From Dehalococcoidia bacterium (GTDB lineage Bacteria > Chloroflexota > Dehalococcoidia > Lucifugimonadales > UBA1123): a DNA stretch of 64,000 bases. A program made the position numbers and the translations under genes. Positions within the stretch are counted from its first letter, which is position 1. Each line of letters begins with the position of its first letter. The stretch covers positions 2,722,491-2,786,490 of the forward strand of contig OZ243978.1 in NCBI GenBank assembly GCA_965214745.1. Reading direction: 5' to 3'. Below, in pieces: positions 5,001 through 38,599 of this stretch. The notes beneath the pieces were generated by a model. It made no database searches, had not been told where the DNA came from, and saw only the letters and a program-made list of their open reading frames with translations.

Positions 5001-7040
5001 TCACCTTCCCGACCGCGCCGCCTCCAACTCTTCCTGCCATTGCGCCACCCGCTTGGACTGCCGCAGATTAGGCGCCATGCGGATAAGCTCGTCCGTGTAC
5101 AGCCGCGCCGCATCCATCTGCGAAGGATCTCGCAGCGCGGCTTGCTGGTAGAACCTCGCGAGCGCCGCGAGCGCCTGCCAACTGAACGGCTCCGCCTCTA
5201 TCGCAATGCCGCCCTCGGCTTCGACGACTTGCAAGGCGAGCGCATACTCCTCATCCGGCATGTCCGGCGCTTCTCGCGCCGCGCTTTCTATTAGCCGTAT
5301 CCGCTCGTAATTCCCCAACGGCGGAAAGCGATCGATCCCCGCTGTGGAGATTTCCAATCGATCCGTCCACGTCCCGCTATGCAGATTGGCGTTTCTGAGA
5401 ATTCGGGCGGCAGCCATCGGCTGGTAGCTGTACGCGACAGTCGCGGCTGCGAGCGCCGCTATGACTGCCGCCGCCAAGACGCGCGCCCGCCAAGCGCCTG
5501 CGAATAGCGGGGGCGGTTCCGAATCCCGCTCGCCTGACTTGCTCCCCCTCGGTTGGGAAGGGCGATTCCAACGGCTGATTTTCCGCCACGCAGCGTCTGC
5601 CCATGCAGGCGCGGAGCGCCATCCCCATCCCGCGTCGCCAGCCGCCTCGCGCTCCTCCTGCGCGAAGTACGCCACGATGAGCGCGAACATCAGCATTGAC
5701 GTCGGCGTCTCCACCTGAACCATGCTTTGGGCGAAGAACGCCGCGCCCGCCGCGCAGTAGGCGGCGATCTCCGCGCGCCCGCCCGCCCTTTCGCGCCGCA
5801 GCGCAAGCGCAGCCGCGCGCGCCATCGCGAGCCATAGGATGATGAAAGCGGCAAAACCCGCCGCCCCCTTGCCGGACAGCTCTTCCACCGCCTTGTTGTG
5901 CGCGTAGTCGAGGTTTTGGTTGGAAACATGACCGGGTTCTAAGAATTTACCCCACATCGCGGAGAAATTCTCAGGCCCCCAGCCGAGGATCGGACGCTCG
6001 GCAAACGCTTTCAGCCCAATCTCGACGGCGGCGATCCTATCCTGAACGCTTCCCCCGTCGTCGCGTATCCGCACAAGCACCTGACTGCTCTGAACCAGAG
6101 GATCGAAATTGTCGGTGAAGACTATCGCGGCGATAGACGCCGCGCCTACTAGAACGAATACTACGGCGGCGGCGGCGGCCCACTTCATCCTCGTGGATAC
6201 TGGTCCAACCAGCAGAGCGACGCCGAACACGAGCAGCGCGACGATGAGCGCGATCAGCCCTGCGCGAGAGCCTGTCAGCCACAGCGCCCATAAGTTCAGC
6301 AGTATAGCCGCGAATATCAGAACGCGGACTGCAAGCATCCAGCCAATGAGCGGAGTCGCGCTCCTCTCACTCTTGCCGCGCCGCGCCGCGCGACGGCGGC
6401 GGTGGCGGCGGGAGATAGCCGAGCGCGGCGGCGGCTGAGACTTGCGGCGCGAGGGTCGAATCAGAAGCCCGAGACCGATTGTCACGCTGACCAAGGCATA
6501 CGTTCCTAAGAAGGTGGCGTTTCCCAGCGTGGAGTGAACCCTGTCTTCGTGCAGCGCGATTCCCAGGTCGATCATCCCGTGCCACGCGGCTACGCCCACT
6601 GCGGACACGACGGCGCTCATGAAGAGGTTGGCGGTGAACAGCAGCCTCCATTCCGACCGCGCGCGAAACACGGACGACACGACCAAGACGAACGCGAACC
6701 AGTGCGCGAGGTCGACGACGCCCTGCATCCGCTCGTAGTTCGACCAGAAGCTGCGCGTTGGGCTTGCGCCGAACAAAGCGGCGACGGCGGAGATAGCCAG
6801 CCAGAGCGCGAACGCGATGAGAATGCGAGACTTGGACGGGCGCAGATCCGGGAAGATAATTATGGCTATCAGCCAGAGCGCGAACGCGATTTCTATCAGC
6901 AGCCGCATATAGACTGCCTTTCCCACGATGAGCGGGAACAGGGAGCTAGGCGTGACTATGAGCGGGGAAACCAGAGTCAGCACAACGACGAGCTGTATCG
7001 CCAAAAGCAGAGCTTGGCGATACGCGAAGCCTCCGTTCAT
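5001..7040 (-). CDS. O-antigen ligase / Wzy_C-family polytopic membrane protein with C-terminal soluble helical (TPR-like) domain
   Basis: Many TM segments and a Wzy_C-like motif ...LDYAHNKAVEELSGKGAAGFAAFIILWL. Start placed at MNGGFAYRQ (7040) because the longer ORF (to 7211) would run into the glyQS promoter region. Contains an Arg-rich low-complexity loop (RKSQPPPRSAISRRHRRRRAARRGKSER). Confidence 0.65.
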   Translation of the reverse strand: MNGGFAYRQALLLAIQLVVVLTLVSPLIVTPSSLFPLIVGKAVYMRLLIEIAFALWLIAIIIFPDLRPSKSRILIAFALWLAISAVAALFGASPTRSFWSNYERMQGVVDLAHWFAFVLVVSSVFRARSEWRLLFTANLFMSAVVSAVGVAAWHGMIDLGIALHEDRVHSTLGNATFLGTYALVSVTIGLGLLIRPSRRKSQPPPRSAISRRHRRRRAARRGKSERSATPLIGWMLAVRVLIFAAILLNLWALWLTGSRAGLIALIVALLVFGVALLVGPVSTRMKWAAAAAVVFVLVGAASIAAIVFTDNFDPLVQSSQVLVRIRDDGGSVQDRIAAVEIGLKAFAERPILGWGPENFSAMWGKFLEPGHVSNQNLDYAHNKAVEELSGKGAAGFAAFIILWLAMARAAALALRRERAGGRAEIAAYCAAGAAFFAQSMVQVETPTSMLMFALIVAYFAQEEREAAGDAGWGWRSAPAWADAAWRKISRWNRPSQPRGSKSGERDSEPPPLFAGAWRARVLAAAVIAALAAATVAYSYQPMAAARILRNANLHSGTWTDRLEISTAGIDRFPPLGNYERIRLIESAAREAPDMPDEEYALALQVVEAEGGIAIEAEPFSWQALAALARFYQQAALRDPSQMDAARLYTDELIRMAPNLRQSKRVAQWQEELEAARSGR

Positions 7041-7218
7041 CGCTGTCGTCCGGCTTGCCAACGAGATTCCTCCAGGGGCGCGGTATGAGAGAATTATACA
7101 AAAATCAGGCGTCTGGGATTCGCGCGCCCTTGTTTGCGGCAAGCCCCGCTTGCAAGCTCGCGCGGCGAGCAGCCGCCCTTGCCTATGGGGGGCGGCATTC
7201 TCTATCCTCAATTCGAGA

Positions 7219-32066: not shown

Positions 32067-34381
<2,315 letters not shown>

Positions 34382-34450
34382 GAGCGGCTATCCTGTCCTT
34401 GCCCGCTCGGTTAGAGCGAGCTCCATTCTTGTCTCGATATGCCTAATTGC

Positions 34451-34903
34451 CTAATTATCGCTCTGAACGCGGCCGAGGGGGGAGCTAATCTCGTCAACCT
34501 CGATTTTCACCTCAGGGATTCGGTGTATATGCCAGCCCATTTGCAAGTCTATCATAATGTTGCCTTCCACGACGTCTTTCAGGTTTTCGCGCGCTTCCTC
34601 ATAGGTTTCGCCATATGTGAAAGCGCCGTTCATGTCCGGCACGATGGCGGTTATTGTTCCATCTTCCTCGCGGGTATACTCGGCGAGTTCCAACGCAGCC
34701 TGTATGTACTCGGGTAGAGAGAATCCGACGAGCTTCTTGGGGAAGGCGGGCAGGTCTTTAGGGTCTTGTACGTTGTCGGACTGGGCGCGTTCGAGATAGA
34801 AGTCGTATTCCCGCTTGTGGCGTTCCAGCAGCCGCGCAAGCGCGACCGACTCCGCGCTCGACGGGGCATCGGTTAGCTCCGGCCGTGTTATGGAAGCGGG
34901 CAT
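34451..34903 (-). CDS. HicB/UPF0150-like domain protein (no HicA partner seen)
   Basis: 150 aa. Core ...DGTITAIVPDMNGAFTYGETYEEARENLKDVVEG... matches the HicB N-terminal (UPF0150) pattern vPdlpG..t.GeT.eEA. About 80-aa N-terminal extension of unknown type. Lies in the lower-GC insert. Confidence 0.45.
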   Translation of the reverse strand: MPASITRPELTDAPSSAESVALARLLERHKREYDFYLERAQSDNVQDPKDLPAFPKKLVGFSLPEYIQAALELAEYTREEDGTITAIVPDMNGAFTYGETYEEARENLKDVVEGNIMIDLQMGWHIHRIPEVKIEVDEISSPLGRVQSDN

Positions 34904-34975
34904 GGTCTTACTATCCTAATAAGAATCGGTGAACGGTATCGAATCTTGGGGCGCTCTTTCCTTAGTTCGCGCGTT

Positions 34976-35311
34976 TTAGAAACTCAGGCATAGGCGGGCG
35001 GCGGTGGCGTGGTTGCGCTTCATCCAATCGACCATCTCGCTGAAGAAGTTTTCCGCCCGTGATCTGTCCTCATCGGAAACTTGGCGTCCATAGTCAGCCT
35101 CGCCGCCGACGTACTCGTTCATCAAGTGGGTGAGATAGGCATCATAATCCACCGAGCCGGTGTTAGCGTCGCGGAGCGCGTTCCAGTCCATTTCAAAGAC
35201 GATGATGCCATCCTCTCCGGGTTCGTAAGTCTCTATCAGTTGACATGTCAAACGGCGCGGCGGACGCGGAAGCCAACCATCCACCTTCAATATGCCGTAG
35301 TCTATCGCCAT
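34976..35311 (-). CDS. hypothetical small acidic protein
   Basis: 111-aa ORF rich in D/E (…YEPGEDGIIVFEMDWNALRD…GGEADYGRQVSDEDRSRAENFFSEMVDW…). Same strand, between the GmrSD-like gene and the HicB-like gene. Confidence 0.4.
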   Translation of the reverse strand: MAIDYGILKVDGWLPRPPRRLTCQLIETYEPGEDGIIVFEMDWNALRDANTGSVDYDAYLTHLMNEYVGGEADYGRQVSDEDRSRAENFFSEMVDWMKRNHATAARLCLSF

Positions 35312-35351
35312 TTTCGCTTGTCCTTGGCGTTTGCGTGGGTTTTCGTTATCG

Positions 35352-37087: not shown

Positions 37088-38599
37088 CTAGTAAGGCACG
37101 CTCGCCTTGAAGTCTTCCAGCGCGGCGTTCAGCGCCTCTCCGGTTTCGTCGCTTATCGTCTTCTCGTCGCGGATAGTCGTCAGCAGCTCGGGGCGGCTGG
37201 CGTCCATGTAGCTGTGGAGCGCGCTCTCGAACGCGATGACGCGCGGTATCTCCACGTCGTCTAGGAAGCCGTTGACCAGCGCGTAGATGGCAATTACTTG
37301 CTTCTCGAACGGCAGCGGCACGTTTTGGCCCTGCTTGAGTATCTCGGTGGCTCGCTGTCCGCGCTCCAGCTGGCGGCGGGTGGCGGGGTCCAGATCCGAG
37401 GTGCCGAACTGGGCGAACGTGACCAGCTCTCGATACTGCGCGAGGTCTAGCCGCAAGGTGCCGGCTACGGAGCGCATGGCGCGCGTCTGCGCGGAGCTGC
37501 CGACGCGGGAGACGGACAGCCCGGCGTTCACGGCGGGGCGGATGCCGGAGTTGAACAGCTCGGTCTCTAGGTATATCTGCCCATCGGTAATCGATATGAC
37601 GTTGGTAGGCACGTATGCGGACACGTCTCCCGCCTGCGTCTCGATTATGGGCAGCGCAGTTATGGAGCCGCCGCCGTGCTCTTCGTCCATCTTGGCGGCG
37701 CGCTCCAGCAGGCGGCTGTGCAGGTAGAACACGTCGCCGGGGTACGCCTCGCGTCCGGGCGGGCGGCGCAGCAAGAGAGACATCTCGCGGTACGCCCATG
37801 CGTGCTTGGATAGGTCGTCGTAGACTACGAGCGCGTCTTTGCCGTCTTCCATGAACCGCTCCGCCATGGCGCAGCCGGCGTATGGGGCTAGGTACTGCAT
37901 CGGCGCGGGGTCGGCGGAGTTGGCGGCGACGACGATTGTGTGTTCCATCGCGCCGTATCCGTCCAGCAGCGCGACGGTCTGCGCCACCTTGCTCGCCTTC
38001 TGCCCGATTGCCACGTAGATGCAGATGAGGTCTCCGCCGCGCTGGTTGATGATGGTGTCTAACGCGATGGCGGATTTTCCGGTGGAGCGGTCGCCGATGA
38101 TAAGCTCGCGCTGTCCGCGCCCTATGGGTATCATGGCGTCTATAGCCTTGATGCCGGTCTGCACGGGCGTGTCTACGGACATGCGCGTGGAGACGTCCGG
38201 CGCGACTACTTCCACCGGGCGGTTTTCGGATGTGTCTATCGGGCCTTTGCCGTCTATCGGTTCGCCTAGCGCGTTGACTACGCGCCCCAGCAGCGCTTCG
38301 CCTACGGGGACTTCTACGATGCGGCCTGTGCTGCGAACGCGGGAGCCTTCCTTGACGGCGAGCGGGTCGCCCATGATGACTGAGCCAACCGAGTCTTCTT
38401 CTAGGTTGAGCGCCATGCCCATGACGCCGCCCTCGAATTCGAGCAGCTCGGTATAGGCTGCGCCAGCCAGCCCGTGAACTTGGGCTACGCCGTCGCCGAC
38501 TTCTATCACAGTGCCTTCGTCTACAGCTTCGAGCTGCTGCTCCCAGTTCTCGATTTGGCTCCGTATTACGGAGGCTATGTCTTGCCCTCTGACCGCCAT
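37088..38599 (-). CDS. atpA: F0F1 ATP synthase subunit alpha
   Basis: 503 aa. Walker A GDRSTGKS, ...[43 protein letters not shown]... Confidence 0.96.

Follow-up and report, generated by a model that had tools for sequence, protein, structure and literature searches.

What does a HicB-family antitoxin gene do where no HicA toxin gene accompanies it? The question is raised by a 64,000-nt stretch of a Dehalococcoidia bacterium genome (contig OZ243978.1; this whole stretch is called the window here), in which the minus-strand gene order reads atpA, a gene for a GmrSD-family type IV restriction nuclease, a 111-aa open reading frame (ORF) that we call orf111, a 150-aa hicB-like gene, and atpG. A preliminary description made from the sequence alone had reported the three middle genes in this order and on this strand, and the ORF list agrees. 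It had further proposed that orf111, which it called strongly acidic, could be a replacement toxin partner of the HicB-like protein or a DNA mimic-like regulator or immunity factor for the nuclease, and that the trio may act as one unit. Our analysis points in another direction: the locus probably combines a decayed hicBA module with a dispensable, GmrSD-linked ORFan, with orf111 being an accessory of GmrSD rather than a toxin that has replaced HicA.

The HicB-like protein and the remains of hicA

The UPF0150/HicB core that had been read from the translation of the 150-aa ORF held in both profile and fold searches. Residues 65 to 125 matched PF21748 (E = 1.7e-14; 53.9 bits, relative to a cut-off of 27.3), the match to PF15919 (HicB_lk_antitox; 25.0 bits) fell slightly below its cut-off of 27, and the HicB-like family phrog_497 was matched at E = 1.5e-7. 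When a HicB profile built from 19 homologs (alignment A1) was compared with the sequences in the PDB, it matched TTHA0281, Burkholderia pseudomallei HicB, and TTHA1756. The AlphaFold2 (AF2) model, whose predicted local distance difference test (pLDDT) score was 75 overall and 90 to 96 in the core, matched Thermus thermophilus TTHA0281 (PDB 2DSY) in Foldseek with a template modeling (TM) score of 0.82 to 0.85 and a root mean square deviation of 1.5 Å; the next matches, 6G1C, 6G26, 4P78, and 6HPB, were the solved HicB structures of B. pseudomallei, Yersinia pestis, and Escherichia coli. Judged from the sequence family and modeled fold that it shares with these antitoxins, the 150-aa protein is a genuine member of the HicB/UPF0150-fold antitoxin family (partial RNase H-like beta-beta-beta-alpha-beta fold).

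The protein consists of a clade-specific conserved N-terminal helix (about residues 17 to 42) and the UPF0150/HicB core (about residues 57 to 138). No fused DNA-binding domain of the ribbon-helix-helix (RHH) or helix-turn-helix (HTH) type was matched in Pfam, and the model likewise comprised the N-terminal helix and the core; such a domain is frequent in HicB proteins but not obligatory (PMC2701414). The window HicB differs from many HicBs in lacking a C-terminal RHH or HTH domain and in having an N-terminal helix region of ~60 residues instead. A block of ~42 nt (TTTGATACC...ATTAGGAT) precedes hicB in every locus, whether orf111 or GmrSD lies upstream (alignment A4), and this conserved leader could be the promoter or operator of the module, although the HicB protein has no recognizable DNA-binding domain. 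At scores below those of the HicB matches, the HicB-like model also weakly resembled Acb4 of phage SPO1, an anti-CBASS protein that binds cyclic nucleotides (PDB 9E4W; probability, 0.25 to 0.72; TM score, 0.34 to 0.43); proteins of related fold can therefore have roles other than that of an antitoxin.

The idea of a replacement toxin had started from the rule that hicA normally precedes hicB, but this rule fails in the present subfamily. More than 20 related loci, lying both within and outside the atp operon, have hicA after hicB with an overlap of ~20 nt. The overlap of a ~74-aa hicA with the 3' end of hicB was read in L011, L012, L029, L030, L032, L037, L040, L054, and L091, and the HicA of L091 matched PF07927 at 3.1e-12. 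For this HicB subfamily, the gene-order argument behind a replacement toxin is void.

What, then, became of hicA in the window? No intact hicA adjoins the window hicB, and a 60-nt 3' stub alone remains between hicB and atpG; the earlier wording "without HicA" is correct for an intact adjacent gene but not for this surviving remnant. When the 3' end of the window hicB and the spacer to atpG were aligned with the hicB-hicA-atpG segments of L002, L005, L091, and L029 (alignment A5), a single deletion of ~160 bp was evident: homology runs through "...EISSP" and then resumes within the 3' end of hicA, with the junction at ~34471-34474. The stub translates as AFRAIIRQLGISRQEWSSL followed by a stop codon and matches the C terminus of an L002 HicA (GVIRAIVRQMGISREEWNSL, likewise followed by a stop) at 14 of 19 positions, and the last 6 to 7 codons of the window hicB (tail GRVQSDN) are hicA stub DNA read out of frame. 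The nearest relatives of the window HicB are the two HicBs of L002 (76% and 68% identity), each of which is followed by hicA. Since hicA has been deleted with a readable stub left behind, and since the L002 orthologs each have a hicA, the window HicB is, on the evidence of this alignment, a solitary antitoxin, the apparent remnant of a hicB-hicA module after deletion of the first two-thirds of hicA. It is a member of the family by descent that is not in a working pair. The apparent anomaly of a HicB without HicA is thereby removed: the locus holds a decayed hicBA module with a readable hicA stub.

This locus resembles HicB systems in that, at its orthologous loci, hicB overlaps and forms a pair with hicA of family PF07927, and it differs from them in the hicB-then-hicA order of its subfamily and in the reduction of the window toxin gene to a stub. 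It also resembles decaying chromosomal type II toxin-antitoxin (TA) loci and solitary antitoxins, given that the toxin gene has been lost by internal deletion while the antitoxin gene is intact, and relatives display stages of decay from an intact module through an interrupted hicA (L086) to hicB only (L073 and L081). In contrast to those decaying loci, this one lies between two essential genes of one operon and is subject to tandem amplification, reaching up to four modules in the relative L032. The orphan HicB may persist as a harmless leftover. Because the genome has four other complete hic pairs, in which each HicA gene has its own HicB-like neighbor, the orphan may buffer related HicA toxins.

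orf111 and its link to GmrSD

Since the HicB gene no longer calls for a partner of a new kind, is orf111 a gene at all, and to which neighbor does it belong? Its family comprises seven proteins of 104 to 111 aa, 47 to 61% identical to the window copy; a single-sequence search returned one homolog, and a profile search returned five more. Beyond the window copy, searches of 35 further family genomes and of ~400 genomes of the class and a metagenome pattern scan found none. The alignment (A3) shows an invariant N terminus (MAIDxxILxxDxWLPRPP), a conserved C terminus (FFxxMxxWMKRK-ATxxRL), and a variable acidic middle. Pairwise ratios of nonsynonymous to synonymous substitution rates (dN/dS) were 0.19 to 0.51, relative to 0.11 to 0.25 for GmrSD in the same loci, and orf111 evolves about twice as fast as GmrSD. 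By these comparative measures, orf111 is a real, fast-evolving protein-coding gene. A nonfunctional ORF that arose by chance or is decaying would fit the tiny distribution and the lack of a known domain, but this possibility is largely refuted and we give it hardly any weight: length and frame are preserved in seven orthologs at identities as low as 47%, third-position changes between the window and L001 copies are ~2-fold as frequent as changes at each other position, all 10 pairs have a dN/dS below 1, the termini show no variation, and a Shine-Dalgarno sequence of its own precedes the gene.

The seven contexts in which orf111 could be read (the window, L001, L091, L092/L093, L094/L095, L096/L097, and L098) all have GmrSD directly upstream, with a spacer of 32 to 40 nt, and a HicB-like gene follows 51 to 72 nt downstream wherever the contig extends. 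All of these loci are the atpA-atpG gap of one genus and, as far as sequence and gene order tell, represent one inherited cassette rather than independent co-occurrence. The 111-aa ORF therefore proved to be conserved and to be flanked by both neighbors, albeit as a single inherited association.

The nuclease itself appears to be complete. It matched PF03235 (E = 3.6e-37), PF07510 (E = 4.5e-27), and PADLOC Orf5 (E = 4.5e-152), and the DGQQR motif of the N-terminal DUF262 domain (IDGQQRLTT in the translation) and the His-Me finger of the C-terminal DUF1524 domain (EHVLPQS...HRLANLVLLSRSKNSRANN, also read as EHVLPQS...HRLANLVLL...N) are both present. On these motifs and profiles, the 562-aa ORF encodes a type IV restriction enzyme of the GmrSD family, full-length and with intact motifs. 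GmrSD/BrxU-type single-protein type IV restriction enzymes, which act alone, have the same two full-length domains and motifs, and partnerless GmrSD genes occur in this lineage too (L058 and L059); the lineage of the window differs in that its GmrSD sits within the ATP synthase operon and that one sub-lineage has orf111 behind it. We know of no described GmrSD accessory that would be a counterpart to orf111, and no paper in the literature ties GmrSD to HicB functionally.

Comparison of near-identical loci indicates that orf111 comes and goes. GmrSD occurs without orf111 in L005, L006/L007, L008, L058, and L059, and the GmrSD of L006 is nearly identical to those of L001 and L091. Over 3.7 kb spanning atpA to GmrSD, L006 shares 97.6% identity with L091, and the two are distinguished by a precise 354-bp indel that corresponds to orf111 plus its Shine-Dalgarno sequence. 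Because L006 lacks orf111 by this clean indel beside an intact, near-identical GmrSD, orf111 is, as read from this comparison, a discrete and dispensable unit. It resembles in this respect phage "morons" and small accessory ORFs of defense islands, which are likewise self-contained and present or absent between near-identical cassettes, but it differs from morons in that neither a promoter nor a terminator specific to it was detected and the context is not that of a phage.

We favor the view that orf111 is an accessory inherited with GmrSD, which might act, for example, as a modulator or partner of the nuclease. Several points weigh against this view. The link between orf111 and GmrSD is synteny in a single inherited cassette, which amounts to one evolutionary observation, and the HicB-like gene is equally constant behind orf111, such that a link to HicB is conceivable on synteny alone. 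The AF2 model of orf111 is weak (a two-sequence alignment; pLDDT 68), and cotranscription of the cassette with the atp genes is inferred only. Finally, orf111 is intact in L094 and L095 though GmrSD appears frameshifted there: GmrSD matches in two overlapping pieces in two frames (one reaching query residue 387, the other starting at residue 362; L094 1-1342 and L095 1-1504), which suggests a frameshifted or rearranged pseudogene in two independent assemblies, next to an intact orf111 and two intact HicB genes. This combination argues against a strict dependence of orf111 on GmrSD.

Could orf111 instead be a new toxin whose antitoxin is the downstream HicB-like protein, in a noncanonical pair that replaces hicA? 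The constant spacing of the two genes in every locus that is long enough would fit such a pair, as would the missing hicA of the window, the lack of a HicA match in L092 and L094, and the fact that a toxin gene can always be lost without harm, as it would have been in L006. We nevertheless consider this reading most improbable. The hicA stub accounts for the missing partner of the window HicB, and in L091 orf111 coexists with hicB-hicB-hicA. In the HicB tree, the window copy groups with the HicA-partnered HicBs of L002, whereas the HicBs that follow orf111 in L091 and L094 fall together with L006_1 and L005_2, two HicBs that have a HicA partner and no orf111; the neighbors of orf111 thus come from different subclades whose orthologs have HicA partners. 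The first HicB gene is unchanged by the presence or absence of orf111 (92.7% nucleotide identity between the two states). orf111 and hicB do not overlap and show no translational coupling, their products are both acidic (pI 4.5), and the pair was never seen outside the atpA-atpG cassette of one genus. HicA and HicB have been reported strictly as exclusive pairs (PMC2701414), which also counts against a pair of orf111 and HicB. A replacement toxin is accordingly an unnecessary proposal, and a disfavored one. We also considered orf111 as a stand-in for the slot of a first HicB paralog, as suggested by L005, L006, and L008, and rejected this possibility since L091 and L094 have orf111 plus two HicB genes. 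In L092, the orf111 homolog is directly followed by a single 238-aa ORF (6367-7083) in which two HicB-like units are fused.

A second alternative holds that orf111 is an acidic, DNA mimic-like inhibitor or immunity factor that restrains or tunes the adjacent GmrSD. Its position directly downstream of GmrSD in every case speaks for this role, as do a net charge of -7 to -10 that is conserved in seven of seven members (pI 4.4 to 4.8) and its rate of evolution, twice that of GmrSD. The protein is indeed acidic, but "strongly" overstated the case: the window copy, with a pI of 4.51, 18% Asp plus Glu, and a net charge of about -9, is no more acidic than the HicB-like protein (pI 4.52) or AtpD (4.51) and close to AtpA (4.69), such that its acidity is that of the neighboring housekeeping proteins. 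Established DNA mimics, Ocr and ArdA among them, are far more acidic. With its low-confidence model, orf111 matched no DNA mimic fold in the PDB or the viral library. It is cleanly deleted next to the intact, 98%-identical GmrSD of L006, GmrSD does without it in L005, L008, L058, and L059, and it is kept where GmrSD is frameshifted. The physical linkage to GmrSD stands, and the specific role of a DNA mimic or immunity factor seems rather improbable to us.

Homology searches were of little help in deciding what orf111 resembles. It matched nothing in Pfam, NCBIfam, PADLOC, or PHROGs; raising the Pfam threshold to an E value of 10 produced no match to PF07927, UPF0150/HicB, or PAS, which, together with the low pI of all members, bears out the earlier reading that orf111 has no HicA-like motif. 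A profile search of PDB sequences gave no match, and Foldseek with the low-confidence model returned nothing better than E = 0.28 from the PDB and the viral library (BFVD). Structure prediction and remote homology search succeeded for the HicB-like protein, for which they recovered the fold and the solved HicBs, but not for orf111. A PAS domain origin was considered because of a phmmer match (E = 2.7e-8; a 38-bit local match) to a multi-PAS histidine kinase, but this value was inflated by three repeats, the ortholog P0002 reached 21 bits, and Pfam gave no PAS support; we take the match to be due to chance. A second weak match, to the low-complexity repeat protein P0023, was dismissed as spurious.

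A weak lead raises the possibility that orf111 is a highly diverged HicB-fold paralog, a further member of the tandem hicB array at this site and neither a toxin nor a GmrSD factor. In hhalign, residues 27 to 41 of orf111 (TYExDExGIIVxxM) align with the beta1-beta2 motif of HicB (AEYERDEDGxIVAxV) at a score of 22, which was reached by 1 of 200 column-shuffled controls, reversed controls scoring ~12. Nearly all subthreshold hmmsearch matches of the orf111 profile among 6101 local ORFs were to HicB-like ORFs, the HicB fold could accommodate the predicted order of strands and helix (beta, beta, beta, alpha ... beta), and relatives carry up to four tandem hicB copies at the site. However, the hhalign probability was only 5% over 10 to 15 columns, and the weak matches all lead to mutually homologous proteins and are thus not independent. 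UPF0150/HicB was not matched in Pfam even at an E value of 10, no HicB is among the top 50 Foldseek matches of orf111, and the invariant N- and C-terminal motifs of orf111 have no counterpart in HicB. We regard a diverged HicB paralog as unlikely.

Returning to orf111 as a GmrSD accessory, it is conceivable, if a long shot, that orf111 founds a new family of small GmrSD partners, such as a host-encoded brake, sensor, or specificity factor, or, less likely still, that it is the first non-HicA toxin under the control of a HicB-fold antitoxin. A family found only behind GmrSD offers a cheap candidate for the first host-encoded GmrSD accessory protein. Some relatives carry additional ORFs of 123 to 146 aa without a significant Pfam match between atpA and GmrSD (L091 3859-4299, L006 3162-3533, and L058 3268-3696), which are absent from the window.

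Three separable elements in the ATP synthase operon

Do the three genes form one unit? We compared the stretch upstream of atpG across 30 genomes of the family (loci L061-L090), all belonging to the Dehalococcoidia. In half of them (15 of 30), atpA is directly followed by atpG and the gap is empty. Seven genomes have hicB plus hicA in one to four tandem modules, alone in five and with a restriction-modification pair upstream in two, and four, the window included, have hicB but no hicA. GmrSD alone fills the gap in one genome (G024), and the content is of another kind in the remaining three (L072, L079, and L084). Metagenome contigs add further variants: GmrSD followed by two HicB genes, HicA being present or absent; an N6_N4 methyltransferase/CfrBI-like restriction-modification pair with two HicB genes; and a further methyltransferase gene between atpG and atpD. 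Because relatives show GmrSD, the restriction-modification pair, and hicB(A) in differing combinations, these are separable cargo at a polymorphic site. The cassette of the window accordingly consists of three separable elements, namely, GmrSD, the solitary HicB antitoxin, and orf111. The proposal that the trio acts as one unit finds no support here, given that GmrSD occurs alone (L058), that hicB(A) occurs alone in many genomes, and that the trio itself amounts to a single syntenic cassette.

The 2.7-kb cassette between atpA and atpG has a GC content of 0.48 to 0.57, in contrast to 0.63 in its surroundings, which speaks for a foreign origin. Its genes share one orientation with intergenic gaps of 40 to 72 nt (in the window, the atpA-GmrSD gap is 47 nt, and the atpG-atpD gap is 53 nt), and a scan of the coding (minus) strand for promoters and terminators within the cassette found nothing, including no terminator-like site. 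Given this shared strand, these short gaps, and the lack of a terminator-like site on the minus strand, all three genes would be read through from the atp operon. The features of the locus, and the methyltransferase regions found between atpG and atpD in relatives, are listed in Table 1.

Table 1. Features of the window locus (positions in the window) and atpG-atpD methyltransferase regions of related loci (positions in the respective locus)
Feature	Position	Strand	Basis and remarks
atpA (F1 alpha subunit)	37088..38599	-	ORF list; 88-92% identical to atpA of related loci; Pfam ATP-synt_ab on orthologs; upstream boundary of the cassette
GmrSD-family type IV restriction nuclease, 562 aa	35352..37040	-	PF03235, PF07510, PADLOC Orf5, motifs
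orf111, ORFan, 111 aa	34976..35311	-	Seven-member family; own Shine-Dalgarno AAGGA at 35321-35325
Conserved hicB leader (GxTTxGATACC...ATTAGGAT...CCATG)	34904..34945	-	Alignment A4; holds the hicB ribosome-binding site
Solitary HicB-family antitoxin gene, 150 aa	34451..34903	-	PF21748, PDB profile matches, AF2 model and Foldseek
hicA pseudogene stub, last 19 codons and stop (AFRAIIRQLGISRQEWSSL)	34411..34470	-	DNA alignment A5 and translation
atpG (F1 gamma subunit)	33518..34381	-	82-90% identity to the atpG genes of the family; bounds the cassette downstream
atpG-atpD methyltransferase region, L004	6408-8581
atpG-atpD methyltransferase region, L005	7545-9023
atpG-atpD methyltransferase region, L006	7425-8912
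atpG-atpD methyltransferase region, L008	4433-5908
atpG-atpD methyltransferase region, L091	8356-9843
atpG-atpD methyltransferase region, L092	8218-9741

The pair of orf111 and HicB is itself of low novelty; what is unusual is that an ATP synthase operon carries hic genes and restriction genes as cargo. No description of TA genes inside an ATP synthase operon was found in the literature. In one Dehalococcoidia genus, this essential operon serves hicBA modules and restriction genes as a polymorphic landing site. An extreme case is L032 (G019:C1:107897-111289), in which the atpA-atpG gap holds hicB in four tandem copies and hicA follows three of these; this array is an amplification of a TA module within an essential operon.

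A second insertion site lies between atpG and atpD, where relatives carry a gene for an N6_Mtase/Eco57I-type methyltransferase of 491 to 507 aa that is absent from the window; in L004, a 229-aa ORF without a Pfam match precedes it. In L063 (G031; 2-1464), the atpA match is split into two pieces that overlap (residues 16-128 and 123-503 of the query), possibly owing to a frameshift or an assembly error in the alpha subunit gene. In L005 (11131-11878) and L008 (8018-8768), the next genes downstream of atpC form an RHH-PIN (vapBC-like) pair, and the atp operon is therefore flanked as well as interrupted by TA genes.

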